From: an uncultured Verrucomicrobiae bacterium
GTDB taxonomy: Bacteria > Verrucomicrobiota > Verrucomicrobiia > Limisphaerales > Palsa-1400
Assembly (NCBI GenBank): GCA_963702845.1
Contig: OY969763.1
Coordinates: 3,104,001-3,168,000 of the forward strand
Length of the DNA: 64,000 bases
Direction of reading: 5' to 3'
Positions 21,482 to 48,244 of the stretch are shown here, piece by piece. Numbering within the stretch: the stretch's first letter is position 1; every line of letters begins with the position of its first letter. Under the pieces are notes generated by a model. That model saw only the letters and a program-made list of their open reading frames with translations, was not told the DNA's origin and made no database searches. The translations under genes and the position numbers were made by a program.

Positions 21482-21618
21482 GAGTTATATAGCGGCGCGT
21501 TTTCACGCATCGCATAAACCCTCTCTCACCGAGAAAGGCCCGAATGGCGGGGGCGCTGCATTCCACCGGAATGAGTTGGCCGGTCGCACGAACCCTGCAC
21601 CGCAGGGTTGATTGACAG
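21482..21618 (-). repeat. structured dispersed element, copy A (full length)
   Basis: Near-identical to 24193-24330; three CGGTG-loop hairpins plus a GCGT-GAAA-ACGC hairpin. Confidence 0.9.
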
Positions 21619-21806
21619 AGGCATTTTTGGGTTTTCAAAAGAAATTTGCAAGAGATAAAACTGCGGTTGGAATTGGAAGTTGCTCCGGGCTTGGTACCGG
21701 GTCGGAGTATGATCAAGCCAAAACCGGCGATCATGGTGGCGGTTATGGGAGAGTGAAATTCTCTGTCGGCGAAGCTGGCGCCAGCTAAAGGTCAGATATC
21801 ACTGAT

Positions 21807-21932
21807 ATGACAATACCATTAACTTTTTCGCCAGAATTGCACGCGACCTCAGCCACAATTGATCGGACCAAATCTCCTGAAGGCAGATACCCGTCCGACC
21901 ATTATGCAGGCACAGCAATACTGCGGTGGTAA
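21807..21932 (+). pseudogene. C-terminal fragment of an endonuclease/exonuclease/phosphatase (EEP) family gene
   Basis: Translates ...ATSATIDRTKSPEGRYPSDHYAGTAILRW*; PSDH is the terminal EEP catalytic motif. Confidence 0.6.
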
Positions 21933-21968
21933 TCGGGCACGAGCCAATTCCGATCAATTCAATCTCTA

Positions 21969-23678
21969 TTACTGATGCACGCTGATGCTGTAAAAACCGG
22001 CGGTGATGTGGCTCAGGATATTTGTCCAGGAATTCTCCGGGGGCGTGGCAATGAGGTTGGCTGCGCCGGGTAGCGCTGCGAAAGCAGCTGCGCCCGAGGT
22101 TAGGTTCGTCGCACAAAGGACGTCATAAAGTCGGTTGGACACACTCGACCAGTGCAGAACGAATTGCGTGCCCGAAATGACCTGCTTGCTCGTAATTTTA
22201 AAAACTGAATTGGCGTTGGTCGGATTAGTTCCCGCAACATACTCCTGCCGGTTGTTCATCCCATCGCCGTCCGAATCCAGATTGTCGGCGCTGCCATCGG
22301 TCGGCAGGCCGTAAGACGCCAACCAAGTGTGAAACGCCTCGGTTTGCGTCTGAAACGTGAAGCGCGCAACCGTCGAGGTGGCAGACAACCCGTATCCCCA
22401 AATCGCACCCGTGTAATTTTCCGTCGAGGTCGTGCCAATGCCCGATTGGACCCGCACGTCCACCGTTCCCGAGCCTGCAGGCGCAACCGCGGTCACATGG
22501 CCATCGTCGCTAGCGCTCGCCGGCACCTGATTGGTTCCGAACCAGACGGTTAAGCGGCCTGCCGCTCCCGAGAAATTCTGGCCGGTGATTGAGACCGATG
22601 TTCCTGCCACACCTTGCATCGGGCTCACGGACGTCACGGCGGGGCTGAGATCCACCATCTCAAAATTTGTAAACCAAAGGCTTTTTAGCCCATGGACGGT
22701 ATCCTGGATGTCGTTATCGTTCCAGGTAAGGGCGAATCCGTTGGTCGCATTGACCGAATAACTGGCGCCGTTGATGTAGAAAGCCGACCCATTATCGGCA
22801 ACGATTAGTCCGTAATCTTTTAAAGCCTGGGCAACGATCCGGGCTTGCGGATTGAGTGAGGAGATGTCCACGTTGGCTTTCAAGCGGAACCGTGCGCCCA
22901 TCGGCGGTTGAATGGCGCAGTTAGTGCCAGAGTTCGCGACGTGTGAGCCTGGATAAACAAATTGATCCAGGATGATTGAGTTTGGGAGCGTGAACCGAAG
23001 CGCATGATAAATGCCGCCCTGCCCTCCCTGCGCCACTGGCAACGCCTCGTCGGGCCGCGCCAGTCCGGCAAGGATCGAAAGTCCAGCCGCATCCGCTGAG
23101 GTCAATTCCAACGGACGGAAGTAATTGTTTGTCATGTTCCAAAACGTCTCACTATCCGCATGCCACTTGCCATCCGCGTTTTCCGACGGGCGCGACGCGC
23201 GATAAAATTCGTAGGCCACATTGTTGTCTTCGTCCCAGAGCAGCAGATGTGAATCGCCCCGAGTGTCGACGCCGACCGTCGGCGCAGTCTGCATATCGCC
23301 TTCAATTACGGCGTTGGCAGGAATGGGGGCATCGAGCAAATCGCTGTCGCCGGCGTACGCATCGATTACAACGTGAACCTTCGGGGTAGCGTTGCCGTGA
23401 ACGACGTTGTAAGGAATGCCATACAAATCAGTGTTGGCGAGCCTTTGGTCCTGCCCGAAATCGGGGTGGAGATGACCGTTTCCGTATCTGTTAACGATGT
23501 TGCTTATGATTACGTCCGAATTGGTCGCGGCAGGCGCCTGGGAAAGCTTTTGGTTCCACGGATAATCGGCGGGAAAAAGATTCGACCCCAGCAGCGCACC
23601 ACAAGCCGGTATGATCGGCGCGGCCAGCACGCAGACACAGAGAAAACTAAGAAGAAGGACTCGGCTTGGCCGGTGCAT
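21969..23678 (-). CDS. secreted protein with IPT/TIG domain, TSP3-like DSDGDG motif and C-terminal domain
   Basis: Signal peptide from ATG 23678; PAVTSVSP..G..GT.V.ITGQNF (IPT); DSDGDGMNN.QEYVAGTNP; ends GFYSISVHQ. Confidence 0.8.
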   Translation of the reverse strand: MHRPSRVLLLSFLCVCVLAAPIIPACGALLGSNLFPADYPWNQKLSQAPAATNSDVIISNIVNRYGNGHLHPDFGQDQRLANTDLYGIPYNVVHGNATPKVHVVIDAYAGDSDLLDAPIPANAVIEGDMQTAPTVGVDTRGDSHLLLWDEDNNVAYEFYRASRPSENADGKWHADSETFWNMTNNYFRPLELTSADAAGLSILAGLARPDEALPVAQGGQGGIYHALRFTLPNSIILDQFVYPGSHVANSGTNCAIQPPMGARFRLKANVDISSLNPQARIVAQALKDYGLIVADNGSAFYINGASYSVNATNGFALTWNDNDIQDTVHGLKSLWFTNFEMVDLSPAVTSVSPMQGVAGTSVSITGQNFSGAAGRLTVWFGTNQVPASASDDGHVTAVAPAGSGTVDVRVQSGIGTTSTENYTGAIWGYGLSATSTVARFTFQTQTEAFHTWLASYGLPTDGSADNLDSDGDGMNNRQEYVAGTNPTNANSVFKITSKQVISGTQFVLHWSSVSNRLYDVLCATNLTSGAAAFAALPGAANLIATPPENSWTNILSHITAGFYSISVHQ

Positions 23679-24013
23679 CTCGTGAGTATAACCAAAAAAC
23701 GATGGAGCAAAAGCACCCACCCTGCCGAAGCCAGCACCCTTAATGCCATTATCACTGCAATTCTTCTTTAGCATTCCCGCCTAGAACCTTAACTGAAAGG
23801 AAATTGCTTTTGACGCTGGCGCGGTTAATTCGCTCGGTAAGCGAATCAGCCCAGTGCACTCACCACCGTTACGCGACTTTGTATGCATTGTATCGCGCGA
23901 AATGGAAGGCGTCGGGCGTCGGATCAAGTAATGGGGTGGAAATGTCATCCAGAGACTCAAACGAAAGGAGGATTCCAAGTTCGCGGCAGTATTCTTAGGA
24001 TTTTTTGAGTTTC

Positions 24014-24191
24014 AGAGCGTATAAAAAAATGCTGTGTCCATTCGGCTGAGCAGAGGGGAGAGCGGTCTTTTTGAATTTTGACTTCGTTTCGACTCAGTCA
24101 CAGACCGCTGCGGGTATGCTCCTTCGTTAAAGCCTCGCCAAAATCCAAAAATCCTCGCTCCGAACGGCTACAGAATTTTTTTATACGCTCT
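24014..24191. mobile_element. MITE with 22-bp terminal inverted repeats
   Basis: AGAGCGTATAAAAAAATGCTGT ... ACAGAATTTTTTTATACGCTCT (1 mismatch); 178 bp; no ORF. Confidence 0.8.
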
Positions 24192-24192
24192 A

Positions 24193-24330
24193 GAGTTATA
24201 TAGCGGCGCGTTTTCACGCATCGCTTAAACCCTCTCTCACCGAGAAAGGCCCGAATGGCGGGGGCGCTGCATTCCACCGGAATGAGTTGGCCGGTTCGAT
24301 CGAACCCTGCACCGCAGAGCTGATTGACAG
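24193..24330 (-). repeat. structured dispersed element, copy B (full length)
   Basis: Near-identical to copy A; abuts the MITE. Confidence 0.9.
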
Positions 24331-24796
24331 GAGAAAAATATAATATGGGTAAGAAAATGCAAGACTGTGCCGCGCGAATTCCCAGAAATAGTGGAGGGGT
24401 AGTGGGCGAGTAGTGAGTGAAAGGAACAGGAGCAAACGGAGGGAACGGAGGTGCTGGCGTGCAGCCAGGGTGGCATGAGATGCATTACTGGAACGACCGG
24501 GGCTGAATGAAGATGCGAAAAACCCGCGGCGCGGGCAGAAAGTGCAGCGAACCATTCGCCGGCCAAGGGAGTCCTATGTCAAAAACCGGGTTATTTTGCC
24601 CGAACAACAACCGGCGTCGCTGGGTAGGCTGGACTGAGGAGTGGTTTCACTCAGTCTGGATGAACACTAAGGAACCAAAGCATCTGCTGGTTGATATCAT
24701 TAACACTGGTGAGCGCGCACCTCATCCGCCACTCAGCCTCGTTAACCCAGCACCGGTAGTCGCGCTTTCGAACCGTGCCGAACACCCTGTGCCGGT

Positions 24797-25084
24797 TCAG
24801 CCTGCGCTCAAATCTTCCATCGCACCATAGAACGATATCTCCGGTTTGCCGACGACACCAGCCCCCGCCATCGCCTTCCGCAGCTCTGCGGATTTGATGA
24901 ATTTTTTCAATCGCGCGGTGGTATCCCACTCGCACCAGACCAGTAGGTCGTTTGGACTCTTGCTGCCGCGGCAAACATAAAAACTTTTCTCCCCGGACGC
25001 CTTGCGAACGGCAGCGAAGGTTTTGACCTCCCGTTTCCACTTCGCGTAATTGGCGACCTTGTGCTGAATCATGACGTATGGCAT
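24797..25084 (-). CDS. small dimeric alpha-beta barrel protein (ABM/cyclase-like)
   Basis: IQHKVANYAKWK...SAELRKAMAGAGVVGKPEI pattern. Confidence 0.75.
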   Translation of the reverse strand: MPYVMIQHKVANYAKWKREVKTFAAVRKASGEKSFYVCRGSKSPNDLLVWCEWDTTARLKKFIKSAELRKAMAGAGVVGKPEISFYGAMEDLSAG

Positions 25085-25598
25085 GTCGTACCTTTCGGTT
25101 AATGTGTTGTGCTACCAAGTGCGGCTAAACGGCAAACGCGCCGTCCCCCCGGGTGAACATGTGCGAGCTCCTTCCGTCTGTCCAATCAAACTTGGTCTGG
25201 ACTCGCTCGAGAGCTTCAGCTTACTAGCATGAATCCTGCACGGCCAAAATATTCAGCCTAAGGAACCATCGAACTTGAAATCCCCAATGGGGCCGCTGTT
25301 TCAATTCCGGACTGGCGGCTCAGAACTGCAATGATTTATTTCCAATGGTTAGAGGACCAGTTCGCTCCAGGCTGTATCAAACCCTCTACCGCGCAAGAGG
25401 ACAAAAAGCAAAATCCTGCTATGAGGGACGGCAACTTGTTTCTTTGATGTTGTTTAGTTTTCTTGCGACATGAGTTAGAGGGTGAAGTTCAATTTGGCAG
25501 ATGGAATGGAACGGAGGAGGCCGGGCAACCGTGGGTCCCGGTTCCGAATCGGGATCATCATCAAGTCACCGTGCGAGGGCGCGTGATGCTGGCTTGTT

Positions 25599-25676
25599 GC
25601 TTAAACCCTCTCTCACCGAGAAAGGCCCGAATGGCGGGGGCGCTGCATTCCACCGGAATGAGTTGGGCGGTCAACC
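25599..25676 (-). repeat. structured dispersed element, copy C (partial)
   Basis: Matches the central two hairpins of copies A/B; 80 nt after the RND pump stop. Confidence 0.88.
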
Positions 25677-25756
25677 CAAACCGAGCCGATCCGAAGGACT
25701 TGTTACTTTCGCTTTAGCTCGTTTGCATGCTGAACAGTAGAAAAAAGTTCGTGTTC

Positions 25757-28700
25757 TCATTTGTTTTCAGTCCCACGCGTTGAATCACTACTCCGTTCGA
25801 AAATCAGGTAGAGGACCGGCAGCACAATGAGCGTGAGGAGCGTGGCTGAAACCAAGCCGCCTATAATGACAACGGCTAACGGCCGTTGTGTTTCGGAGCC
25901 AATCCCGTGCGAGAGCGCCATCGGCAACAGCCCAAGCATCGCCAATAATGCCGTCATCAGCACCGTTCGCAGCCGTGTCGCGGCGCCTTCCATGATTGCC
26001 TCATAGAGGGAGACACCTTCATCCCGAAGCTGGTTGAAATAACTGACCATGACCACGCCGTTGAGGACGGCCTGGCCGAAAAGCGCAATAAAACCGATCG
26101 CCGCCGAAACGCTTAACGGGATGCCGGTGAGCAGCAAGGCAAGTACTCCACCGATCAAACCAAGCGGCACGTTTACCAAAATCAGCAGCGCACTTTTGAC
26201 GGATTTGAACGCATCAAATAGCAGCACAAAAATCAGGAACGTGCTAATCGGAACAATGAGAGCGAGGCGTTTCATCGCCCGTTGCTGGTTTTCAAATTCC
26301 CCACTCCAACTCACAAACCAGCCCCGCGGAAGCGACGTTTTTTGCAAACGAGCCTGCATATCGGCCACGACGCTGCCCATGTCGCGTCCTTTGATGAAGA
26401 TGCTGATAGCCGAGAGCCGCGTCCCGTTTTCGCGGCTGATGTTCATGCTGCCGCCGGTTTCCTTGAACACAGCCACTTGTTCGAGCGGGATGTGGAGACC
26501 ATCTGGCGTGTCCACGAGGATTTTTTTCAAGTTGGCCAGGCTGCGCTCAGCCTCGGGCAGTCGCACAACGATACTGAAGTGCTGTTCCCCTTCCCACAAC
26601 TCAGTGGCGGCTTTTCCGGCAAGGCCGATTTCGATCACGTCCTCGATATCGCCGACATTGAGCCCATACCGAGAAGCACTCTCACGATCAATTTCAATGA
26701 GCGCCTGGGGCACTTCCCCGGCGCGATCGACAACCGCCGTTTCAACGCCAGGAATATCGGCAATAGCCTTCACCATCTCTTGCGCTTTACGGCGCAAGGC
26801 AGCGGAATCATCGCCGAACACTTTGATCACGACCTGCCCGTCAATCTGCGAAATGCTCTCCAGCACATTGTCGCGGATAGGTTGTGAAAAACTGATTTCA
26901 ACTCCCGGCAAACTTTCAAGATTCCGCCCCATCTCCTGGATGACCGCTTCCTTGCTGAGCCCGCGTTTCCATTCGCCGGGCGGCTTTAAATCCACAAAAG
27001 TCTCCGCCATATTAATCGACTTCGGATCAGTCCCGTCTTCCGGCCGTCCTGCTTTGGAAATGACCGTGCCGACTTCGGGCGTCTTGCGAATGAGCTCGCG
27101 CATCTTCGGCAATACACCCGCGCCTGCTCGACCGAAATACCCGGGGGCAGATTGGCGTTAACCCAAATCTTTCCTTCGTTCAGCTCGGGCAAAAATTCCG
27201 TGCCGAGCCTGGTAGCCATCACCAGGCTGGCGACAAACACCCCCAACGCGGCAATGAGGACAAACTTTGGATGGGCCATCGCACGCCGGAGGACAGCCAA
27301 ATACGGCTTCTTAATGGACCGCACGAGCGCGTTTTCCGTGTGCGGAATATTTTTCCGCAGCAAAAACATGCAGAGCAAGGGCACCAACGTGAGCGAAAAC
27401 AGCAGCGACCCGGCCAACGCACTGGTCACAGTCCATGCCATGGGGGCAAAAATCCGGCCTTCATGACGTTGCAATGTGAAAATCGGGATATGCGCGGCGA
27501 TAATGATGAGCATGGAAAAGAACGTTGGCCGGCCAACCTCAATCGTCGCCTGTTCAATCGCCTCGCGGAAAGTTCTTTTGTCACCGCTTTGCTTCAATTC
27601 ACCAAGACGCCGGAAGACATTCTCAACAACGATCACTGCACCATCCACAATAATGCCAAAGTCCATCGCTCCCAGAGAAAGCAAATTAGCCGGTATCCCT
27701 CGCCAACTCAGCCCAATGAAAGTGGCCAACAAAGACAGCGGGATCATAAGTGCAACGATGGCGGCAGCGCGGAAGTTGCCCAGAAACAGCAGCAAAACGA
27801 ATGTCACGAGAATCGCGCCCTCCGCCAGATTCTTGAAAACGGTATGAAGCGTTGTGTCAATCAACCACGTGCGGTCGTAATAAGGAACAATTGTGACACC
27901 TTTCGGGAGGATAGACGTATTGAGCAGCTCAATCTTCGCCTTCAGCGCCTAAGCACATCCGAAGGATTTTCGCCTTTGCGCATGAGGACGATTCCCGAGA
28001 CAATATCATCTGTGTCGTCCTGCCCGATAATCCCTTCCATCGGCAAATGGCCCAATCGTAATGTCCGCAATGTCCCTTGATCAAAATCGGTGTCGCCGCC
28101 CCGGCTGGTGATGACGATGTTGCTTATATCATCAGGAGAGCGAAGAAGACCGACACCACGAATGATATACTGCTGTGAACCCTGCGTCACTTTGCTTCCG
28201 CCCACATTGGCATTGCCGCGGCCCAACGCGGTAATAGGGTTGCTGCAGCGTAATACCATAGTACGCGCATCCGACCGAGGCTGGGGTTGACTTCATACGT
28301 TTTACCAAGCCCGCCAAGAGTCACGACATCGGCAACACCTGGCACGCCGCGCAGGTTTCGCTCCACAACCCAATCTTCAAGCGTGCGCAAATCCCGCGTT
28401 GTATAACCTCGGGGCCATTCAGGGTGTAGCGGTAGATTTCGCCGATCGCGGTAGAGAGCGGCGCCAGTTGCGGTTGGACGCCTTGAGGCAAATCAGCTGT
28501 CGTAAGCCGTTCGAGCACTTGCTGGCGCGCCTGCCTATCAGTCGTTCGGTCATCAAAAGTCAGCATGATGAACGAGAGACCAAACTGCGTGTGTGAAAAC
28601 ATCCGCACCATGTGCGGCAGACCATTCAATACTGTTTCAAGCGGCATCGTGACCTGCTTCTCCACTTCTTCCGGAGCGCGGCCCGTATAAAGCGTGATGA

Positions 28701-28845
28701 CGTTGACCTGAATATCCGATACGTCAGGAAACGCCTCGATCGGCAAGCTGTGAAATGCCGCGAGACCACCACCGATAAAAAGAACCGCCATCAGCACGAT
28801 GAACAGCGGCTGATGCAGGGCAAAACTGACGACGCGTTTAATCAT
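25757..28845 (-). pseudogene. CzcA/CusA-family heavy-metal RND efflux pump, multiply frameshifted
   Basis: LPIEAFPDVSD, LSLGAMDFGIIVDGAV, EFLPELNEG and RLRTVLMTALLA motifs spread over six or more ORF fragments. Confidence 0.85.
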
Positions 28846-28876
28846 TTGAGTGAAGGGCTGGGAGGAACCGTCATGA

Positions 28877-30010
28877 CTATTCCAGCATCTGTTGAAGCAA
28901 GACGCAGCCGTCGGTGACGACTTGCTGACCCGGTTGCAGACCGCTTACAATACGAACAAGTCCGTCCTGCTCGGTGCCAATCGCGACCTGCTGCCGTTTG
29001 AATTGGGTGTGAGCTTCTTCGACAAAGACGTAGTGCTTTTCACCTTTCAGGAAAACCGCCTTTGACGGTACAGTTAAGACAGACACTCCACTCCCTGGCA
29101 GGTTTACGGTGACGAACATCTCCGCTTTGAGCGACCCGCCGTCATTGTTCACCGTGCCTCGGACTTTGATCGTGCGTGTGCCGGGGTCGATGAATTGCGA
29201 AACATGGTCCACACGTCCCGTAAAGGTCTGGTTTGGGAACGCCCGGCTGATGAATGTAAACTCCCGGCCCCGCTCTAATCGCGACAGATCAACTTCCGTT
29301 GCATCGATTTGAATCCACAATTTCGACGGATTACTTACGACAAACAGCGGCGAAAAAAATTGCGGCGCGTTCGCCAGCATTTGGTCAGGACGGATTTCCT
29401 GTCCGGGATTGATATTCTTTTCGACGATCGTTCCGGCAATGGGGCTTTTCAGGACGAAAACTCCATCAACCGAATCCGCATTCGCGCCATAAGCGACCAA
29501 TTTGGATAGCGTTCGTGCGCGTTCCGATTGCGCGCGAGCTTCATCCGCCTCGCTGGCTTCGACGTCCTTTTGCGGAGCAGCGCCGTGTGCAAACAATTCA
29601 CGCACACGCTTCATGTTGCGCTCCGCTAATTGCAGATCACTTTCAGCTTTGCGCGCCTCCGCCTGCGCCTGGCCGAAATCCGGCGACTCGACTTCTGCCA
29701 GTGGTGCACCTTTCTCGACTGTCTCTCCCGGATGAGCGAAAATTTTACGCACACGCCCAGCGAACGGTGTGAAAATGTGCACCGTCACCTCGTCATTCCA
29801 AACGAGCCGGCCAAAAAGCGCGGTGCTTGTGGGAGGACGCGAATCAACGGGTTTAACCTCCAAGGAAGTCAGTTGCGGCGACTCCGCCGGAAAAGTGATG
29901 CTCTCGTCGGCAACCTTGGGCTCGGCTGCTTGCTCTTCTTTCATCTCGCGATGGCAACCTGCAACCAGGCTTGCCAGCAGCAATGAACTCATCAAATGGA
30001 TCGTTTTCAT
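28877..30010 (-). CDS. RND efflux membrane fusion protein (CzcB-like lipoprotein)
   Basis: LVAGC lipobox; GETVEKGAPLA, IDPGTRTIKVR and GLQPGQQVVTDG motifs. Confidence 0.9.
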   Translation of the reverse strand: MKTIHLMSSLLLASLVAGCHREMKEEQAAEPKVADESITFPAESPQLTSLEVKPVDSRPPTSTALFGRLVWNDEVTVHIFTPFAGRVRKIFAHPGETVEKGAPLAEVESPDFGQAQAEARKAESDLQLAERNMKRVRELFAHGAAPQKDVEASEADEARAQSERARTLSKLVAYGANADSVDGVFVLKSPIAGTIVEKNINPGQEIRPDQMLANAPQFFSPLFVVSNPSKLWIQIDATEVDLSRLERGREFTFISRAFPNQTFTGRVDHVSQFIDPGTRTIKVRGTVNNDGGSLKAEMFVTVNLPGSGVSVLTVPSKAVFLKGEKHYVFVEEAHTQFKRQQVAIGTEQDGLVRIVSGLQPGQQVVTDGCVLLQQMLE

Positions 30011-31329: not shown

Positions 31330-31424
31330 CTAGCCCTGTCAGGGTAGCGAAGATCCATCGGGTGTCTGTTAGGCGGGGTCTAATTATTTTGTACGGCGAG
31401 GTACTACACGCCAACAGGCACTGA

Positions 31425-32099
31425 TCACCGCGGATGTTTGGCTTCATTCCAGCGAATGGCTTCGCGGAGCAGTTCCGTTGCGCTTTTAAGATTCAGCTTC
31501 TCTTTCACTCGCGCGCAGTATGCCTGGACCGTTTTCATGCTGACGTTCAACGCCTCCGATACCTGCCGTGTTCCAAGCCCTTTTCCGAGCAGATCAAATA
31601 CAGCCATCTCCCGGTCGCTCAGCAGTTCCACCGGCGAAGCGCTTGAGGCGGACTTCCCTTCAATCAGCCGCGCTGTCATGACTTCGCTGACCCTGGGGCT
31701 GATGTAGAGTTTCCCATCCAAAACTTTGCGAATCCCTTCAATTATTTTTTTGGTCGCTTCCCGTTTCATCACGTAGCCCTTTGCACCGGCGCGGATCGCG
31801 CGTTCGGCATAATGCAATTCATCGTGCATCGAAAGGACCAAAACGGCGATTTCCGGATGTGAATTCTTCAAATCCTTGATCAGTTCAATACCCGAAGAGT
31901 TATCCAATGAAATATCCACAATCGCTACCTCAGGTTTACAAACGCTCATCGCCTGCAAGGCTGGAGGAGCACTTTCCGTTTCTCCGCAAACCACGAGATC
32001 GGATTGCTGATTAATGAGATTAGTCAACCATTCCCGCACCAGCGGATGGTCATCCACCAAAAAGACTTTCCTCTTCTTTTTGTTCGTTGCGGTCGTCAT
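31425..32099 (-). CDS. NarL/LuxR-family response regulator
   Basis: VDDHPLVR receiver domain; LSDRE..V..L.GKG HTH. Confidence 0.93.
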   Translation of the reverse strand: MTTATNKKKRKVFLVDDHPLVREWLTNLINQQSDLVVCGETESAPPALQAMSVCKPEVAIVDISLDNSSGIELIKDLKNSHPEIAVLVLSMHDELHYAERAIRAGAKGYVMKREATKKIIEGIRKVLDGKLYISPRVSEVMTARLIEGKSASSASPVELLSDREMAVFDLLGKGLGTRQVSEALNVSMKTVQAYCARVKEKLNLKSATELLREAIRWNEAKHPR

Positions 32100-33169: not shown

Positions 33170-33425
33170 ACATCTAACTCATGTGCGAACGAAGACATCT
33201 GCAACAGAGCGCACCGAGCAACGTTAGCAAAAACGCTGCTTTCCCATGTTCGCCCAAAAGCATCCTTTTATGCAATGATTTCGCATTCCCGGGGCAACTG
33301 AATGTTGCGACTGATGGTTTAGCGCCGGCAAAATCCGGCGTAGACTATACGCTTTTCGGAACACTGTTGTTTGACTGAGTTTGCAGCAACCGGACCTTTG
33401 AACAGCCAGATCAGTGGCGCGGGTT

Positions 33426-35750: not shown

Positions 35751-35804
35751 ACGGCGAAGTCACAGGCTGTCGCGCTTTCTTTTTTTTCGGTAGGCGGACG
35801 TTCT

Positions 35805-35837
35805 GCGATGTGTGAAACTGGCGCCGCTATATATCTC
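35805..35837 (+). repeat. inverted 33-bp fragment of the structured element's terminal part
   Basis: GCGATGTGTGAAACTGGCGCCGCTATATATCTC versus the reverse complement of the A/B end, GCGATGCGTGAAAACGCGCCGCTATATAACTC. Confidence 0.7.
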
Positions 35838-35985
35838 AAAGAATTCTAAGAATTCATCAGCGAACTGTCATCGTTTGCCAATATTCGGGTGTTGCTAACG
35901 TCATCACAGGCATTCACGGATTGTCCGAAACAAGCGGCTACTCGTTCGCGTCGCAAACGAGATGAACCGCGGGAAGGAACTTGTT

Positions 35986-38727: not shown

Positions 38728-38832
38728 AAAGCCTCCGTGTTCGCCAAAGCGGTGCTCAACGGGAAATGCACGTGCCTTCCAAGTGTGAATCAGCACTGGT
38801 TTTTCTTTTCGGTAGTTAAATCGAAAATTGTT

Positions 38833-38860
38833 TGCCCTTTTTGATCCACAATTCCGCATT
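38833..38860 (+). promoter_or_regulatory. putative ECF promoter TGCCC-N17-CGCATT
   Basis: TGCCCTTTTT...CGCATTGCTAG upstream of ATG 38899. Confidence 0.7.
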
Positions 38861-38898
38861 GCTAGCTGAAACGTGATCTTAAAAAGCGGAAAACCATT

Positions 38899-40341: not shown

Positions 40342-40434
40342 AGAGGAATGAATTTCTTCCCAGGTGGGAAGACTGCAGGTCGGGGTGCAAAACGTGTGTG
40401 CGTTCCGACCGCAGACTCTTGCCAAAAATTTCAT

Positions 40435-40462
40435 TGCCCTTTTTCCACCGGAACTTCGCATT
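40435..40462 (+). promoter_or_regulatory. putative ECF promoter TGCCC-N17-CGCATT
   Basis: TGCCCTTTTT...CGCATTGCTAG upstream of ATG 40555. Confidence 0.7.
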
Positions 40463-40554
40463 GCTAGATGGACGATCAGGGATAAATGGAAATCTGATCA
40501 CAACAAACAAACATAGACCCGGGCGAAATTCGCCTGAAAATCGAAGGAAACAAA

Positions 40555-41226
40555 ATGAAATTCATGACACCACAAACCAGTAATTTGATCGGGCCGATTT
40601 GGGCTAGATTAAAAACCAAATGCCTGACCGCAACACTCGCTGCCGGACTCGCTATGCTCGCTACCACCCTGTCAGCCAGCGCCGGTTCCGGCAACGTGCT
40701 CTCGCCCTCGGAGGAAACGCACGGATACTCCCTGGACGACATGGCGGCCGCCGTTGCCAATTTCAGTATCAGCGGGAATGACCTGTCTTTTTATCCAACC
40801 ACGCCGTTCCAGATCATCTACAACCGACCTGGCAGAACTTTCACGGTCAAGCCTGGCACCACGTTGTATTTGAAGTTCTTCTTCATTGACGATTCCGCTC
40901 CGGTCGTCGGCAACTGGCCGGCGGACAAAGCCGAAGCCGGGAATTACGTCTTTGGCGCGGATCAACTCGGCGGGCACGATCTTCAGGTCGTGGTGGATGG
41001 CCAGGTGTCTTCGCTGGATGATCCCGGTTACATCGGTGGGCCGGTCGCGACGCCGACCTCACCCGACGGCAGCGAGCACATGATCCAGATCGGCGCGTTC
41101 GTCACGCCCCTGACCAAGGGAACGCACACCATCACCATTCGAGGTGTATTTGATGGCACGGCACTGGTGGACGCGTTCGGTGGACCTCTTGAAGCTGAAA
41201 TCACCTACACGGTAATTGTGAAGTAA
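40555..41226 (+). CDS. secreted hypothetical protein
   Basis: Signal peptide ending SASA; PLTKGTHTITIRG...ITYTVIVK beta-rich C-terminus. Confidence 0.78.
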   Translation: MKFMTPQTSNLIGPIWARLKTKCLTATLAAGLAMLATTLSASAGSGNVLSPSEETHGYSLDDMAAAVANFSISGNDLSFYPTTPFQIIYNRPGRTFTVKPGTTLYLKFFFIDDSAPVVGNWPADKAEAGNYVFGADQLGGHDLQVVVDGQVSSLDDPGYIGGPVATPTSPDGSEHMIQIGAFVTPLTKGTHTITIRGVFDGTALVDAFGGPLEAEITYTVIVK

Positions 41227-41245
41227 TTTTTTTGCACCAGCGATT

Positions 41246-41284
41246 CGGGCAGCGCAGGCCGTGATGGCCGGCGCTGCCCGTTTT
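41246..41284 (+). terminator. intrinsic terminator
   Basis: CGGGCAGCGC...GCGCTGCCCG stem followed by TTTT. Confidence 0.75.
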
Positions 41285-41372
41285 GCGTTTCTCTCTTAGA
41301 ATGATCCAGAAAGAGTTGGATTCTCCAACTGTTTCAAGTTGTCGCTTCCCGGTTCTCCGCTACTCTGGCCGC

Positions 41373-41930
41373 GTGAGCGATGTTACCCGGATTCTCCAAG
41401 CGGCCCGGAAAGGTGATCCTCAGGCTGCGAACGAGTTGTTGCCGCTCGTTTACGAGGAACTTCGACGGCTCGCCGCTCACAGAATGTCTAATGAAGCGGC
41501 TGGCCAAACATTACAAGCGACCGCTTTAGTTCACGAAGCGTGGCTGCGATTGGTCGGCACCGAAGACAAAAAATGGGATGGGCGCGCCCATTTCTTTGCC
41601 GCTGCTGCAGAAGCGATGCGCCGAATTCTAATTGATCGCGCGCGTCGCAAGAATGCGATCCGTCATGGGGGCGACCACCAGCGCGTGGAGCTTCAGGACT
41701 CAGACTTGCTTGCTGCAGCAACGGACGATCGTTTGATCGCCGTCAGCGAGGCGCTGGACAAACTCGCAATCGAACACAAGGCCGAGGCGGAGTTGGTAAA
41801 GTTGCGTTACTTCGTCGGAATGACCAACGACGAGGCTGCAGAAGCTCTTGGCATTTCGCCGCGCACAGCAAAGTATTATTGGACTCACGCCCGAGCGTGG
41901 CTTTATGCGGAGATCAATCGCACGAGCTAA
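41373..41930 (+). CDS. ECF sigma factor, TIGR02999/Sigma70_ECF type (kinase-associated)
   Basis: GTG start; LLPLVYEELRRLAA, TLQATALVHEAWLRL, HFFAAAAEAMRRILID and W..ARAWL motifs. Confidence 0.92.
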   Translation: MSDVTRILQAARKGDPQAANELLPLVYEELRRLAAHRMSNEAAGQTLQATALVHEAWLRLVGTEDKKWDGRAHFFAAAAEAMRRILIDRARRKNAIRHGGDHQRVELQDSDLLAAATDDRLIAVSEALDKLAIEHKAEAELVKLRYFVGMTNDEAAEALGISPRTAKYYWTHARAWLYAEINRTS

Positions 41931-42045
41931 CGATTGTCAGCGACTGTTGTCTCTCCCACCTGGACAAAATACCCGTCGTGCTAAGGCTTTTTCTTTTGAG
42001 GTTCGCGGAAGCTAACTGCATTTGTTGTTGAGCGACTGAGATGTT

Positions 42046-42197
42046 TCTCACCGAGAAAGGCCCGAATGGCGGGGGCGCTGCATTCCACCGGAATGAGTTG
42101 GCCGGTCAACCGAACCCTGCACCGCAGAGCTGATTGACAGGGAGAGATTCGAATATTTCGGATAAAATTTCAAGACGTAGCTGCACAATTTCCGCGG
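42046..42197 (-). repeat. structured dispersed element, copy D (with 57-bp extension shared with E)
   Basis: 42081-42197 is identical to 48128-48244. Confidence 0.9.
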
Positions 42198-42253
42198 ATA
42201 AACCCACAATGCTGCGCGCGTTCGCGCAGATATCCTGACCGCACACGTTAACA

Positions 42254-44233
42254 TCATCTTCGACATAAAATACGCGCGGCCTGGGTCCCCTGTTCCAGTC
42301 GTTCCGGCGTAAAGTTCAAACCGTAGTTGTGACAAATCCGTGTCATGTCTCGGCCCATCGCCAAATTCAGCAGCGCCGCCGTGAGTTCGTCCTCCGTATA
42401 GCCCTGCCTTTCCAATTGGCGAACAACCGCTTGTTCATTTGCCGACATGAAATGCAAGAAGTTCATGCCGCCTTGGGCGTAGCAGTAGAGGTAGAGGCCG
42501 ACGTTGTGATATTTACGGTATGGTGTCTCGTCGCGCGGAATACCGTTCATGCGATCCATAAACATCCATTTTGCCGGCTGCTCGGTGATCTGGTCAGCTC
42601 CGGCACAACGTGAGGTTTCGACGACCGTTTCGTGGAGGCCGCCGTGATGAAAACCAAAGTTATGTCCGAGTTCGTGAACGATGCCATGCTCGGACATTGG
42701 CGCATCGGAGAAGAATAACCTCGTACTGATGGTGATCCGAGTTCCGTTATGAACGCCAGACGCACCCCGGCGAGACGGATCAATGATGACCGCGGTAGAT
42801 TCCACGCGACGTCTTTTGCCAGCGGAGTAGTTCATGGCGGCAGCGAGCATTTCGGTCTGGGAGAGTAGATTTTGTGCATCTCGCGCAATGACAGCCGGCA
42901 CGGCCATTTTGAACGTTGGGGTCATCACGGTAACGCGCTGGCCTGTGGTGAATCGCGTCTGGCTCAAAAGACCGCGCGGTGATGTGATTTCCCAGACTGC
43001 GCCTGCGTTGGAACGAATTGAACCGGCGCTGGCCGAGAACAACATTTGTCCCGCTTTATCAGTTTCTGTTTCTTCCTCTTCTTCGCCCGCGCTCAGAGTC
43101 TCGACGGAGCGCAAGACGGGACGAGCCTTGATACGCTGTCCGTTCAAAGTGACGTAGACTTCCAAACTGATGGGGTTGTGCTGGTCATCAGATAATTCGT
43201 GCAGAATATGGCCATTGCCATCCACCAGATACAATTGGCCGATGAGTTTGGCTTCTCCCTTTTTGTTTGGTTCAGAAAGGATTTGATCGAGCCCCCCAGT
43301 GAGTGGCGAGTCCATGTTAAGGACAAAGGATTGGCCTGCATGAAGGTCGTATAATTGGCCGACAAAGTTTCCTCTCAATCCGGTTGCCACCGGGCCGGTG
43401 TATCCCACTGAAAACATTCCAGCAGTCAGCAAGACGGTCGCGTTGTCGCAAAGGCGCAGTTGCCCTTCCAAACCGAAGCTTTGCCGCCGAGCCCAGCGGA
43501 ATGTCACCTGGCCTTTTCCGCCTTTGCATTGCACGACGGCGGTTTTCTCCGGCGACGAGATTTTGCCGTCCGCTATTTGGCTGTTCGGGCTTCCCCAGCT
43601 CATTGCAAATCCAGGATGGTCGGCGGTTGCATCGCCTTCGGCCCACAACTGGAAATTGCCAGGCGGGATTTCCATTTGGACCGACTCTGTGGCCGCAGCC
43701 ATGCTGGCGCTGATCCAAATTGGAAAACCTTGCGGCTTGAGAAAGAGACGCTTTGGCGTGAGGACGGTATTGGCCGAACATAACGTCCAATGTTTCGTCG
43801 CCGTTGGAGCTAAACGAACGATTTCGCCAGCGGGCCTTTCGCGAAAGTCCGACCATCCGGCGGAGACGGTTCCATTTGTCTGCGCCAACGCAAAAAAGCC
43901 CCACTTACCCGGAGGCACTTTCGCTTTGACCATGCCGTCCACGCCTGTTTTTCCAAGGAACGACTCATCCCAAAGGATATCATTGCGGTTTTTTACCAGA
44001 CGATCCTGGCGCGGCCATATGAGATTCAGCTCACGGCAAAAACCGTAGATTGAAGCGCCTGAAATTGGTTTGCCGTCCGTGCTGGTGAATTTGAGGCTTA
44101 TGTCGCGATAGGCGAACTCGGGTAAGATCTCGGCGGCAAATGCGATTTGAACAGTTGCCGACCAGAAAAACGCCAGAGCGAGCACTAACGAGCGGTTGTA
44201 TTTGCACATGGAATAAATGTGGAATTCGGACAA
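42254..44233 (-). CDS. secreted putative zinc metallopeptidase
   Basis: Signal peptide; HELGHNFGFHH matches HExxHxxGxxH. Confidence 0.7.
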   Translation of the reverse strand: MSEFHIYSMCKYNRSLVLALAFFWSATVQIAFAAEILPEFAYRDISLKFTSTDGKPISGASIYGFCRELNLIWPRQDRLVKNRNDILWDESFLGKTGVDGMVKAKVPPGKWGFFALAQTNGTVSAGWSDFRERPAGEIVRLAPTATKHWTLCSANTVLTPKRLFLKPQGFPIWISASMAAATESVQMEIPPGNFQLWAEGDATADHPGFAMSWGSPNSQIADGKISSPEKTAVVQCKGGKGQVTFRWARRQSFGLEGQLRLCDNATVLLTAGMFSVGYTGPVATGLRGNFVGQLYDLHAGQSFVLNMDSPLTGGLDQILSEPNKKGEAKLIGQLYLVDGNGHILHELSDDQHNPISLEVYVTLNGQRIKARPVLRSVETLSAGEEEEETETDKAGQMLFSASAGSIRSNAGAVWEITSPRGLLSQTRFTTGQRVTVMTPTFKMAVPAVIARDAQNLLSQTEMLAAAMNYSAGKRRRVESTAVIIDPSRRGASGVHNGTRITISTRLFFSDAPMSEHGIVHELGHNFGFHHGGLHETVVETSRCAGADQITEQPAKWMFMDRMNGIPRDETPYRKYHNVGLYLYCYAQGGMNFLHFMSANEQAVVRQLERQGYTEDELTAALLNLAMGRDMTRICHNYGLNFTPERLEQGTQAARILCRR

Positions 44234-44243
44234 TCATCCGCGA

Positions 44244-44696
44244 CTACTTCAGTTCCTTCCACTCCACCAAATTCTTCCAGTCCGGTGAGCCTTTCGCATA
44301 GCCAGCCGCCAGTTTCGTTGCCTCATCAACTGAGAAAGTTTCCTTTTTCGAAACGAACACAACCTTTCCATCCGGTGAATGTTGAAATGAGAAATGACCA
44401 TCCTGTTCTGCAACGACCCGAATAAAATCCGCCGTTCCATCTGTTTTAATCACCAGCACCGGCCCAAAGTCGTCCTTGTGTGATGCCAATGCCGGACGAA
44501 TATCGGTTTCGATGGGGTTATGTATGATTTTATCGTTATCCTGGAATTCCAACGCGTAGGTCATAGAGTTGGTTCGTGTTGAGGTCATTGATGTTGTGTT
44601 TGTCTGTGCATTGCCATTGGTAACTCCTGAAAAGAACAACGCGCATGTGGTCAGTGTGAGTAATAGTGCTTTGATAATCGTCAGGAAAACTGTCAT
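44244..44696 (-). CDS. secreted hypothetical protein
   Basis: N-terminal signal peptide and Thr/Ser-rich linker. Confidence 0.72.
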   Translation of the reverse strand: MTVFLTIIKALLLTLTTCALFFSGVTNGNAQTNTTSMTSTRTNSMTYALEFQDNDKIIHNPIETDIRPALASHKDDFGPVLVIKTDGTADFIRVVAEQDGHFSFQHSPDGKVVFVSKKETFSVDEATKLAAGYAKGSPDWKNLVEWKELK

Positions 44697-44705
44697 TCGA
44701 ATATC

Positions 44706-44733
44706 TATAAAGAAAAGAGTGTGAAAGGTTACA
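44706..44733 (-). promoter_or_regulatory. putative ECF promoter TGTAACC-N15-TTTATA
   Basis: One of three copies with identical spacing; 9 nt before ATG 44696. Confidence 0.7.
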
Positions 44734-44750
44734 AACCGGGGATGAGAGCT

Positions 44751-46613
44751 TCACTGCGCGCAATACATTTGGATTTCGGCAGCGGTCAATGCCCGGTTGT
44801 AGATCGCGATTTCATCCAGCAATCCGGCGAAATACGTGTTGTAAGTGTAACTGTTTGTCGCTTCGCTGGGACGGTAACTGATCCAAATGTCGCCTTTCGT
44901 CTTTGGCGCAAAACTTTTCCAGGTTGATTCAGCGATGACCCGGCCATTCAAATACAGCGTGCCGGTGCCGGTCCCGCGATCGTAAGTAACGGCGACGTGC
45001 TGGAAAACATCCTTGATCACCACGCCTTGTGCCGACTTAAGCGTGTGATAATGACCCTCCATATCCACGATGATGGCTGTCAATTCACCTTGCGATTCCT
45101 TGCTTCGTGCCAACCGCAACTGCACGCCGATGGTGTGCCGTGCTGCGGATGGGGAATGCCATTCAAGAATTGGATGGAAACCATCTACATCCAGGGGTTT
45201 GATCCACATAGAGATCGTGAGGCCCGGTTGATTCTCCATATCCAACGAGGGGTTGCCGGGAATTCTCGCGTAGGAACTGGTTCCGTTCAGGGCAAAGGCC
45301 TGGCCGGTGTTGCCTTTCGCAAAAGTCACGTCTGTCAGCTCGGCGATATTCGTTCCCGCAGAATCAATCCCGTTCCCTTCACCGGACCACAACGCCACCA
45401 AACCATCGCGCGGGAGCGTGGCATTGGAGCTCAATTCGCGCACTGTTTTGAGTTGGGAAATAGGAACATTGACGTGCCGAGTTTCCGCCGGCTGGCTTAG
45501 TATTTTAATGGCGATGCTGATAAGAACAACTAGGCCGATCAGCACCGTCACTCCGGCGACCAGGCTAAAGGTAGAGATTTTCCTACCTTCGATTTTTGGA
45601 CTGGCCTGCGGTGGTGTTGCGGGATTGGCAGGAGACGTTTTCTTATTCGTTGATGGAGTCTCTTTCGGTGGCGTTGCCGCAATATTTTCCACTGCCGTTT
45701 TTATTTCGCTGACTTGTTGGTAACGGAGTTCCGGTTCCTTTTCGAGAGCGTGGAGAATCACTTCGTCCACGCGCGAATCGGTTTTCACCTTTTGTGACGG
45801 GAGTTGGAATTTCCCCAGCGGCAGCTCGCCCGTCAGCATTTCGTAAAACACGACACCGACTGAGTAGATATCCGCCCGGCAATCCACCGTCAGCGGTTTT
45901 TCCAATTGCTCGGGGGCCATGTAGTGCGGCGTGCCGACCACCTGATTGACACCAGTCAGCGACAGATCTTTCGGATCGGGATCCAAAATTTTTGCGAGCC
46001 CGAAGTCAGCAATCTTCACCCGGCCATCTTGATCCAGCAGGATGTTCTCCGGCTTGATGTCGCGATGGACGATGCCCCGCTCATGCGCGTATTGGAGTGC
46101 ATCGCAGATCTGCGGAATGATCGCCAGGGCTTCGGCGGGCGAAAATTGACCACTGCGGTAGAGCTGCCGCAGATTGAGACCATCCACAAATTCCATCAGC
46201 AGGTAATAATGCTCTCCTGCCTCGCCGAAATCGTAGACCGTTACGATGTGCGGATGTGTCAAAGCTGCAAGCGCACGGGCTTCGCGCTCGAAACGTTCGG
46301 CGAACTGCGGGTCATCTTGACGTTCCCGAGCAAGAATTTTCAATGCCACGAAGCGATCCAGGCGCAACTGTCGAGCTTTGTAGACCGCACCCATTCCGCC
46401 CTGGCCAAGCAGCGCGAGGATCTCAAGCTGCGGAAAGAGCCTGGCCAGCTCTTCCACTGCAGGCGGCACGAAAACCGACCCGCCGCGTGCCGGCTCGTTT
46501 CCAGCCCGACTCTCAAACCCGGTTTTGATGAGGCACTCCGGACACAGTCCCTGCGGCGCATCCGGGACGGATGGCTTCATGCAAACCGGACAGGTTGGTG
46601 TCGGATCAATCAC
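44751..46613 (-). CDS. Ser/Thr protein kinase with N-terminal CxxC..CxxC, TM helix and LamG/ConA-like domain
   Basis: CPVC...CPEC; GQGGMGAVYKA, HRDIKPEN and DFGLAK; QHVAVTYD...LYLNG...GLLDEIAIYNRALT. Confidence 0.93.
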   Translation of the reverse strand: MIDPTPTCPVCMKPSVPDAPQGLCPECLIKTGFESRAGNEPARGGSVFVPPAVEELARLFPQLEILALLGQGGMGAVYKARQLRLDRFVALKILARERQDDPQFAERFEREARALAALTHPHIVTVYDFGEAGEHYYLLMEFVDGLNLRQLYRSGQFSPAEALAIIPQICDALQYAHERGIVHRDIKPENILLDQDGRVKIADFGLAKILDPDPKDLSLTGVNQVVGTPHYMAPEQLEKPLTVDCRADIYSVGVVFYEMLTGELPLGKFQLPSQKVKTDSRVDEVILHALEKEPELRYQQVSEIKTAVENIAATPPKETPSTNKKTSPANPATPPQASPKIEGRKISTFSLVAGVTVLIGLVVLISIAIKILSQPAETRHVNVPISQLKTVRELSSNATLPRDGLVALWSGEGNGIDSAGTNIAELTDVTFAKGNTGQAFALNGTSSYARIPGNPSLDMENQPGLTISMWIKPLDVDGFHPILEWHSPSAARHTIGVQLRLARSKESQGELTAIIVDMEGHYHTLKSAQGVVIKDVFQHVAVTYDRGTGTGTLYLNGRVIAESTWKSFAPKTKGDIWISYRPSEATNSYTYNTYFAGLLDEIAIYNRALTAAEIQMYCAQ

Positions 46614-46648
46614 AGAGAGGCTCTAAATGTATCGTCGTTCTACGATGA

Positions 46649-46676
46649 TATAAAAGGAATCCGTCGAAAGGTTACA
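46649..46676 (-). promoter_or_regulatory. putative ECF promoter TGTAACC-N15-TTTATA
   Basis: Lies between the ECF gene and the kinase start. Confidence 0.7.
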
Positions 46677-46703
46677 CAATTCACACTGCTCATATGCGAA
46701 CGG

Positions 46704-47450
46704 TCACCGCGCAAGGATGGTGAACAAGTAGCGCAGTTCCTCATCCACATCGGCCGGACTGTTGACAGTGTCGGCGATTTCAGCCCGCAACAGCGCGCGA
46801 TAATTTTGACGCAATCGATGCACCGCCACTTTGATCGAACCCTCCGTCATATTCAATGTTGCGGCGAGAGTTTTGTACGGTTGCGCGTCGCGTTCTCCCA
46901 ATAGGCATGGTTTCAAAGCATTGAACAATTCACCCTTGCCCTGCGCTTGGTAATCGGCGGCGAGTCGATTCAGCACTTTGTCCAGCAAGGTCAATGCCCA
47001 GCGCCATTCGAAACTCTGTTCCGGCGTCGTTCTATCCGGCGGCAACCAACTATCTCCGCCGTCGGCAGCAGTGAACCGAACGGTAAAGACCTGGCCGCCA
47101 CCGCGTTTTTGGGTTCGGCTTTTGTCCCATTCGTTTGCGAGAAACGCGCTGGCTGATGTGAGCAGGAAAGACCGGAACCGCCCACGTTGCTGGTCGGCGC
47201 GCGCGATCCAATTGCGCTCAATCACCCAGGTGAAAAACGCCTGGGTCAGATCTTTGGCGTCGGCTTCGTTGTGTCCTCTACGTCGGATGTAAATATAAAG
47301 TGGTCGCCAATAACTCTGGCAAAGTTGCTCCAGGCTCGCGAGCCCGCGCTCAGAATCGTTCTGGCCAGCAGACAGCACTACCGACCAGCGAGTGGTGGCA
47401 AATATCGAGAGAGGCACCGCCTCTCCAGGGGCAACGTGATTCGTCGTCAC
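46704..47450 (-). CDS. PVC-type ECF sigma factor (FxTTRWS family, kinase-associated)
   Basis: FATTRWSVV, LCQSYWRPLY, DLTQAFF, RGRFRSFLL and KVAVHRLR motifs; GTG start at 47450 preferred. Confidence 0.9.
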   Translation of the reverse strand: MTTNHVAPGEAVPLSIFATTRWSVVLSAGQNDSERGLASLEQLCQSYWRPLYIYIRRRGHNEADAKDLTQAFFTWVIERNWIARADQQRGRFRSFLLTSASAFLANEWDKSRTQKRGGGQVFTVRFTAADGGDSWLPPDRTTPEQSFEWRWALTLLDKVLNRLAADYQAQGKGELFNALKPCLLGERDAQPYKTLAATLNMTEGSIKVAVHRLRQNYRALLRAEIADTVNSPADVDEELRYLFTILAR

Positions 47451-47595
47451 AATCGGGTATTGGCTCGCGCTCGAAAGACGATAATGCAAAGCATTCCGTT
47501 TTTGAATCAGAAACGAAAACCGTAGATCGCCCAAAGCCGTTTCCATAAGTGTTGTGCCAATCATCGTCAGGCATCTCCTGGCCGATTCTGTCTCG

Positions 47596-47623
47596 TGTAA
47601 CCTTTTACCGGCGTTGCTTTATA
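47596..47623 (+). promoter_or_regulatory. putative ECF promoter TGTAACC-N15-TTTATA
   Basis: 10 nt before ATG 47634. Confidence 0.7.
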
Positions 47624-47633
47624 TGGAAGGTGA

Positions 47634-48024
47634 ATGAATACACATTTGATCATTGCATCAGTCGGGGCGTTGGCAGGAATTGTCCCAGTTCTGCTTTTCA
47701 TCGCTATTTGGTTTATCCTCATTATCGGGGTGTGGAAGGTGTTCGCAAAGGGTGGGCAGCCGGGATGGGCGTGCCTTATTCCGATATACAACTTGGTACT
47801 GTCTGATCAAAATCGCGGGCAAGGAATGGTGGTGGCTACTCCTGCTCCTGGTTCCGCTGGTCAACATTGCCGTGGCCATCATGCTGGCCATCGCCATCTC
47901 ACGGAATTTTGGCAAGGGCGGCGGATTTGCGGCGGGACTAATCTTCTTGCCGTGGATTTTTTACCCAATCCTGGGATTCGGTTCAGCCCAGCACCAAAGA
48001 ATGTTGGACCCTGTGACGGCATAA
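47634..48024 (+). CDS. DUF5684-like membrane protein, frameshift near 47800
   Basis: WKVFAKGGQPGWACLIPIYN joins KIAGKEWWWLLLLLVP...FGKGGGFAAGLIFLP.IFYPILGFG in the next frame. Confidence 0.8.
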
Positions 48025-48127
48025 CGGCCATACGAACTGCTTGTTTGGTGTTTCCAGCAAGTTCGACGACGCCGAGGGTCTTTACAAAAAGTGCCCTGAA
48101 ATTGACCCGCGGAACCAAAATGTTCTA

Positions 48128-48244
48128 CATTCCACCGGAATGAGTTGGCCGGTCAACCGAACCCTGCACCGCAGAGCTGATTGACAGGGAGAGATTCGAA
48201 TATTTCGGATAAAATTTCAAGACGTAGCTGCACAATTTCCGCGG
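48128..48244 (-). repeat. structured dispersed element, copy E
   Basis: 117 bp identical to 42081-42197. Confidence 0.9.

Follow-up and report, generated by a model that had tools for sequence, protein, structure and literature searches.

The window analysed here is a 64,000-nucleotide (nt) stretch of DNA (positions 3,104,001-3,168,000) from the 6.03-Mb single-contig genome, 89.8% complete, of an uncultured Verrucomicrobiae bacterium (G000), and it holds six occurrences of a hairpin-rich repeat, designated copies A, B, C, D, E and F following the six occurrences of a preliminary description. The coordinates and strands given there were confirmed, with identities of 79-99%, as were the CGGTG-loop hairpins, the G-U pairs that favour the minus strand and the presence of a same-sense upstream gene at five of the six occurrences. 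The proposed extent of about 140 nt captures a genuine repeat, but the element is longer, as A, B and F all extend further. A BLAST search of the genome with copy B returned 18 rows, of which 17 were kept as copies or fragments (an 18-bp match at 1,795,013 was discarded), while the same query gave zero matches in the reversed genome. Thirteen of the 17 cluster within 136 kb (3.125-3.261 Mb), pointing outward from ∼3.18 Mb with the exception of fragment F. The repeat is very probably the front part of a previously undescribed structured RNA heading a two-gene unit, and the window contains one gene-less cis derivative of that unit (A) together with eroded remains (B-F), broken at unrelated positions.

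The RNA leader is 210-350 nt long. It begins 35 nt behind a sigma70 -35 box of its own and extends to the ribosome-binding site of a gene encoding a 136-amino-acid (aa) helix-turn-helix (HTH) protein. Its 150-nt core was aligned from 34 hand-picked outside sequences and contains eight helices. Pairing was found in 97.3% of cells (87.6±0.4% after shuffling) and double changes at 32 of 56 pairs (16.7±2.0 after shuffling), values that are uncorrected for kinship and refer to a structure drawn from the same sequences; sliding the partners as a control lowered pairing to 40-49%. Covariation thus provides strong support, short of a formal test, for the predicted fold. For single copies the folding advantage over shuffles is modest (z -1.5 and -2.3), so it is covariation that carries the case for structure. 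The GTCAA/GTTGAC pairing, previously doubted, proved to be a real family helix that is 99.5% paired. Three to four identical C-GGN-G loops are each borne on an independent covarying stem; they are triloops of the form C-GG(U/G/A)-G, in which GGA is the minority, and invariant bases occupy unpaired and junction positions of the RNA. The P3 domain is shortened in the window-type RNA, a form also present in at least nine outside loci. A covariance model built without G000 sequences (R1) recovered all five window copies A-E, with the next window matches at 13.8 and 13.3 bits. Scanning the window against Rfam 15 at the gathering threshold gave zero matches, and searches of Rfam at E<=10 with 5 and 13 loci gave no significant row over the RNA. 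A literature search found no description of the RNA or the unit, most subscription journals and the supplements that often hold motif lists being outside its scope. In public reads (seven runs, each with a share below 0.1) the sole RNA run was without coverage over the RNA copies.

In 29 of the 34 outside sequences (control 6%) helix 1 is preceded at 34-36 nt by a -35 box starting with TTG; TTGACA is perfect in 22, and TAnnnT occurs in 26. Copies A, B, D and E keep the TTG at -34/-35 and have poor -10 boxes. Because of where this box stands relative to helix 1, what had been regarded as a variable 5' flank is a promoter region and the hairpins belong to a transcript leader, whose start site we infer from the promoter position to be at helix 1.

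The complete unit consists of a sigma70 promoter, the RNA, the gene for the 136-aa HTH/coiled-coil protein, phased 11-bp triple repeats and a second open reading frame (ORF2). Five genomic copies extend ∼100 nt beyond the repeat first noted, through two more hairpins to a Shine-Dalgarno (SD) sequence and a start codon. At genome positions 2,551,163 and 3,260,533 the leader opens the 136-aa HTH gene, after which come a GGTAAAG triple repeat and a 275-aa ORF2; at 2,104,811 it opens a 123-aa HTH paralogue; and at 319,067, as in copy A, the gene ends after a few codons and gives way to several triple-repeat sets phased at 10-11 bp. Five of the repeat cores are more frequent than in the reversed genome (30 vs 4, 22 vs 0, 11 vs 0, 13 vs 3 and 5 vs 1) and cluster mostly at units, while a sixth is not enriched. 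The 123-aa paralogue, found at 812,791, 877,386, 1,163,814, 1,556,891 and 2,104,811, appears to represent a recently spreading sister element: four of its copies are 97-98% identical, the copies carry phased arrays and four have a different leader.

HTH homologues number 546, nearly all of 136 aa. An alignment of 31 of these proteins led to 183 metagenome loci, and the 80 best of them were used. Among 81 loci (78 from this set together with L036-L038, with near-duplicates and kin counted) a motif search detected the RNA ahead of the HTH gene in 51; 10 of the misses have <300 nt upstream, and two further loci carry an RNA missed by the motif pattern. ORF2 was found in 57 of 86 clustered loci, and among the 45 metagenome loci with 900 nt of room, 41 have ORF2 and 42 have phased repeats. 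No third conserved gene was detected among the 86 loci, many of which are short; likewise integrase, replication or att-bounded-island genes did not recur there and were absent from the units of G000. Four of five dN/dS comparisons were usable (L048 was out of register and dropped), giving 0.10-0.15 for HTH and 0.19-0.21 for ORF2, and substitution patterns thus show both genes to be under purifying selection. The leaders of six further HTH units (L095, L102, L105, L110, L112 and L116) are rich in GAATCC repeats or adopt other folds, and are possibly further RNA or repeat families.

This arrangement bears on both readings offered by the preliminary description. A stand-alone non-coding RNA was correct as to the structured RNA but not as to its independence, since it heads a two-gene unit and the gene-less derivatives of that unit. 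The second reading, a single-strand site of the attC, repetitive extragenic palindrome (REP) or terIS type for a recombinase or HUH enzyme acting in trans, draws on strand-specific hairpins repeated between accessory genes, as in integron attC and REP/RAYT systems, and on seven Y1 HUH and 11 tyrosine-recombinase matches in the genome, including one Y1 gene between the cluster arms. We nevertheless consider it highly improbable. Truncations fall at eleven different positions (3'-side at RNA positions 32, 48, 51, 60, 66, 98 and 110; 5'-side at about 27, 66, 92 and 109), and therefore there is no fixed crossover. Only D and E begin at a hairpin foot as had been reported, the other breaks in the genome lying at unrelated positions and several of them within stems. 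The attC core pair RYYYAAC...GTTRRRY is missing from either strand of A, B and D, and the best genome match to the IntI profile TIGR02249 reached 85.9 bits against a cut-off of 265, which no control genome exceeded. A search of the genome, at its 89.8% completeness, found no reverse transcriptase. Neither the Y2 profile PF04986 nor PF14239 (PLMP) matched G000, and for both the control was silent as well. Unlike attC or REP sequences, the element has its own promoter and SD, and the three Y1 loci inspected each have their own palindromes. These RAYT-like genes, at 845 kb, 3,189 kb and 3,500 kb, are flanked by long palindromes; a link of the element to the Y1 gene at 3,188,824 was considered and dropped. 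Finally, the homologue of the cargo gene between A and B (21,969-23,774, minus strand; TIG/TSP3 domains; outside the element) adjoins a tRNA-Arg gene in the congener G002 (C488/C629) with no element on either side, and the corresponding site is empty in G000. Element-bounded cassettes are thereby set aside, while a weaker form of the idea stands: fragments lie at breaks in synteny, and flanks have been swapped among copies.

A resemblance to the HEARO/IscB omega-RNAs (RF02033) had also been suggested. In both, a structured RNA stands immediately ahead of an ORF within a mobile unit and has a similar first helix; here GTCAA/GTTG(A/G)C is followed by CC(A/G)GC, and the RNA ends at the SD of the ORF. 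Descent from an omega-RNA taken up by a non-nuclease partner is, however, very hard to credit. The HEARO model found no match at E<=10 on 18 loci, nor genome-wide at E<=1. Among 23 RNA loci in other genomes, mostly picked for HTH, 15 lead into the 136-aa gene, the remaining eight end in a stub or in phased arrays like those of copy A (G412, G546, G259 and G297), and none is followed by IscB; TnpA is lacking as well. The RNA has its own promoter, whose -35 box would leave no room for a 5' guide given the start site proposed above. IscB omega-RNAs take that guide from outside the element (10.1101/2023.03.14.532601).

ORF2 has 261 relatives among 50%-clusters, and its N-terminus is arginine-rich in all 25 aligned sequences. 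It had no match in Pfam, PHROG, PADLOC or the Atlas, and a fold search yielded generic helices (best Z 7.1). The ORF2 profile, however, matches four resident genes (E 1e-6 to 3e-4), all phrog_6299 small terminases (TerS) adjoining the large subunit (TerL), and an HHalign comparison of ORF2 with resident TerS covered 78 C-terminal columns at 97.2% (E 3e-11). At the level of sequence these alignments show that the C-terminal half of ORF2 is homologous to the prophage small terminases of this lineage and that the HTH of TerS is absent. At two loci (L038 and L167) a whole TerS stands where ORF2 would be. The predicted structure of the HTH protein (predicted local distance difference test score, pLDDT, 80) combines an HTH with two long helices and a tail, a layout resembling that of TerS, and its Atlas neighbours are labelled HTH_23, Terminase_5 and Phage_terminase. 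A predicted HTH-ORF2 complex scored 0.08 and was not used as evidence. The genome encodes at least nine phrog_6299-type terS genes (L184-L192), seven adjoining terL and two without it; a GGTAATC phased array follows terL at 2,814 kb, and a scrap of the ORF2 C-terminus lies at 3,858 kb.

The front of the unit may in turn control its genes. Of 38 full-length folds, 29 pair the 5' arm of helix P5 with the SD and five keep the local P5 hairpin; that hairpin itself shows double changes at four of its eight pairs, and enforcing it costs a median of 5.5 kcal/mol. Own anti-SD/SD duplexes reach -15.6 kcal/mol against -14.5±0.3 for permuted ones (4 in 10,000 permutations of 32 sequences, among which kin are not independent). 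Long-type RNAs therefore have two conserved, mutually exclusive helices, one of them over the SD, whereas this is not clear for the G000 type. The folding predictions suggest that the leader probably acts as a translational switch. P5 would alternate between a local hairpin, closed by a C-GGN-G loop identical to those on the other stems and leaving the SD free, and pairing with the SD, the off state, and a loop-binding protein (the arginine-rich arm of ORF2 or a phage protein) would set which of the two prevails. Plasmid rep leaders and the GGA loops bound by CsrA are known leaders of the translational-attenuation or protein-responsive kind. The RNA described here shares with them an alternative helix over the SD and repeated GG-containing hairpin loops, but its triloops are mostly not GGA, the controlled genes are terminase-derived and Rfam holds no match. 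Should the switch alone hold, the RNA would still be new, as a protein-responsive leader whose GG triloops are repeated.

Taken together, we propose that the unit is an RNA-controlled, recombinase-free, terminase-derived module that engages helper-phage packaging, a reading to which we assign a probability of roughly 0.45; that it redirects packaging is a slightly more tentative part of it. Expression, switching, DNA binding, TerL recruitment and transfer are all inferred. The HTH protein would bind the phased repeats and ORF2 would supply the terminase-assembly half, so that the two would act as a rebuilt TerS, recruiting the TerL of a phage, whether resident or infecting. Packaging would start at the unit and carry it, with neighbouring accessory DNA, to relatives, where it would enter by host recombination, partly via homology with older copies.

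Phage satellites, among them the SaPIs and those encoding Rpp, are the closest known systems. Their packaging modules include SaPI TerS/Ppi and Rpp of the Escherichia coli phage-inducible chromosomal islands (PICI). Those of PLE are Gpi, GpsA and GpsB (Boyd and Seed, 10.1101/2024.04.22.590561). By analogy with these, the unit has small genes that derive from terminase or act on it and no TerL of its own, the C-terminal half of ORF2 being terminase-derived, and we propose that it likewise depends on a helper phage and uses its cis repeats as a candidate packaging signal. In contrast to satellites it is 2 kb long, dispersed, accompanied by gene-less derivatives and without integrase, replication or excision genes; moreover, TerS appears to be split into an HTH protein and an arginine-rich C-half protein, and a structured RNA stands in front.

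Several observations weigh against this proposal. The likeness of the HTH protein to TerS is a generic 27-column HTH match (81.8%), and comparison of its fold with PDB and BFVD gave no match at E<=0.001, although terminase small subunits were among the weak rows. Phased repeats adjoin one of nine resident phrog_6299-type terS genes, hence a pac-like role is only putative. The covariation controls ignore kinship and the structure came from the sequences on which it was evaluated, while SD pairing is not clear in five G000-type RNAs, copy A included (local hairpin 0.86). Nor is the RNA obligatory, since many HTH/ORF2 units have other leaders: within the order the RNA occurs in 10 of 151 genomes and HTH in 44 of 401. 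Comparisons of empty and filled sites (G001, G002 and genus g206) revealed no clean ends or target duplication. The unit and RNA were not found in viral contigs, a search that does not cover packaging of host DNA; there, seven RNA-pattern and four repeat-pattern matches were judged on inspection to be due to chance, and a second RNA pattern and the HTH alignment had zero matches.

The same terminase ancestry could serve defence. In such an anti-phage packaging inhibitor the RNA would silence the genes until a phage signal flips it, and ORF2, a TerS without its DNA-binding head, would poison the TerS ring or titrate TerL; the repeats would be operators or decoys and gene transfer would be ordinary. 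The C-terminal TerS half of ORF2, devoid of an HTH, the purifying selection on the genes and the location of units in accessory islands are all consistent with this, and Gpi offers a precedent for a TerL inhibitor (10.1101/2024.04.22.590561). We regard it as unlikely, as neither the HTH protein nor ORF2 has a PADLOC match and the multiplied gene-less derivatives suit a cis-acting passenger better than a defence gene.

Another possibility gives the RNA a structural part, its C-GGN-G loops holding several ORF2 arms and organising an RNA-protein terminase ring, for which the pRNA of phi29 is a parallel. The identical loops on independent covarying stems, the arginine-rich N-terminus in 25 of 25 ORF2 sequences, the invariant unpaired and junction bases and the preservation of the entire RNA up to the start codon in gene-less derivatives are what such a scaffold would predict. 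However, the RNA is missing from many ORF2-bearing units, and no terminator or processing site was seen that would release it, its 3' end being the SD; we therefore consider a scaffold improbable. Also improbable, by a shade less, is a composite in which the unit is an RNA-organised two-part small terminase: the RNA would bind the arginine-rich arms, switch on translation and scaffold the HTH protein on the phased repeats, and the helper TerL would package host DNA beginning at those repeats. If true, such a terminase would be a recombinase-free 2-kb packaging parasite with non-coding derivatives resembling miniature inverted-repeat transposable elements (MITEs), driving accessory-gene transfer in Verrucomicrobia.

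Irrespective of mechanism, the work adds a well-supported RNA motif that is missing from Rfam 15, and connects it with an unnamed family of proteins whose origin can now be placed in small terminases. Should the unit redirect or block packaging, it would be the smallest satellite-like module of such a kind known to us and the first under RNA control, and it would provide a testable route for the heavy accessory-gene traffic and for the many orphan terminase genes in soil Verrucomicrobia.

The unit is dispersed in soil and freshwater Verrucomicrobia. The HTH gene is spread over 29 of 166 genera in the order, while a class-wide search for the RNA, scoring 20 candidates per genome, was positive in 1 of 151 genomes (G000 itself). 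Gene-less derivatives of RNA plus repeats have multiplied in G000, G412/G546 and G259. In G000 a full unit starts a 17.3-kb island at a place where G001 joins two genes directly, and the ORF2 of this island is immediately followed by a 106-bp scrap with 87% similarity to a gene located 21 kb beyond the downstream end of the other coding unit. This hints, without proving it, that DNA downstream of the unit is carried along with it. The spread is shown to be patchy, multi-copy and without a recombinase of its own.

These patterns recall the promoter-stem-loop (PeSL) cassettes of T4-type phages, described by Arbiol et al. 2010 (PMC2839356). As in that account, a sigma70 promoter and stem-loop are repeated in a variable region and copies exchange flanks. 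In G000, host recombination between promoter-stem-loop repeats could by itself shuffle accessory genes, with the terminase ancestry as a relic. A 178-bp insert is common to copy B and the copy at 3,255,112 although their promoters differ, which argues for recombination within the RNA; at 2,104,508 the RNA heads a different HTH paralogue, and the orthologous G002 site has another leader; three fragments (L004, L006 and L030) lie at synteny breaks in G002; and 13 of 17 copies occupy a single accessory zone. Against this stand the purifying selection on both genes, a fold far more elaborate than a terminator and the A-B gene that is not element-flanked in G002. Unlike PeSL, the element is chromosomal, and its 250-nt multi-domain RNA ends at an SD and leads into a fixed gene, not a terminator. 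As a full account such shuffling is improbable, to much the same degree as the scaffold; as a secondary effect it is compatible with helper-phage packaging by the unit.

Within the window, copy A retains a full-length leader of the short-P3 type (21,391-21,616, minus strand, as are all copies other than F; R1 42.6 bits, E 1.5e-7), which is 88% identical over 263 nt to the coding copy at 2,550,917. A -35-like hexamer, TTGCAA (21,646-21,651), lies 35 nt ahead of the RNA start, with a degenerate -10 box; a consensus promoter scan did not list this hexamer. Beyond the end first noted come two extra hairpins, the SD GGAAAGG (21,407-21,401) and an HTH-gene stub (21,373-21,390) of six codons, MKDQET, the remainder of the gene being missing. 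Seven sets of phased direct repeats with a period of 10-11 bp follow (20,687-21,274), their cores being GGTAAAG (three sets), GTACAG, GGTAATC, TGCATC and GGTCA. Copy B comprises a -35-like TTGCAT and RNA positions 1-140 (24,192-24,362; R1 39.9 bits), interrupted by the 178-bp insert (24,014-24,191), which has 16-bp terminal inverted repeats and occupies the same place in the copy at 3,255,112 (3,255,255-431); the leader resumes briefly past it (23,992-24,013) and is then lost. The insert is MITE-like, with two copies in G000 and many similar contigs in one rhizosphere run. Upstream of copy B are weak 11-bp phased CTAC repeats (24,388-24,413), also found upstream of the genome copy at 2,550,913, although without excess over the reversed-genome control (5 vs 22).

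Copy C is an internal fragment truncated at both ends (25,599-25,682; R1 25.7 bits), and an AcrB-type efflux gene in three pieces (25,757-28,845, minus strand) lies directly upstream of it. Fragment F is the 3' part of a leader in the opposite orientation (35,801-35,878, plus strand). Copy D retains the promoter region and RNA positions 1-98 (42,044-42,214; R1 33.1 bits), with a promoter type common to E and to three copies at 3.22-3.26 Mb, and copy E a long shared upstream region, the promoter and RNA positions 1-66 (48,125-48,429; R1 19.5 bits). Directly after copy E lies a 66-bp scrap that is 89% like genome positions 3,239,260-325; an ORF at 47,634-48,143 abuts this copy, and its 3' part is the scrap, which resembles an internal piece of the gene at 3,239,168-893. 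The two arms of the genomic cluster (3.125-3.152 and 3.21-3.26 Mb) are rough mirror images, each with a full-length copy outermost and, in the inner part, promoter types common to both.

Elsewhere in the window, an orphan small gene (4012-4530, minus strand) has about 12 genomic relatives, one of which precedes a terminase large subunit-like gene; it is presumably Mu gp27-like, and Pfam and PHROG scans gave no match to it. At 53,057-57,264 a SWIM-finger gene precedes a DUF6493/DUF7824 gene, with DUF7825 on a piece of its own, which may reflect a split gene.

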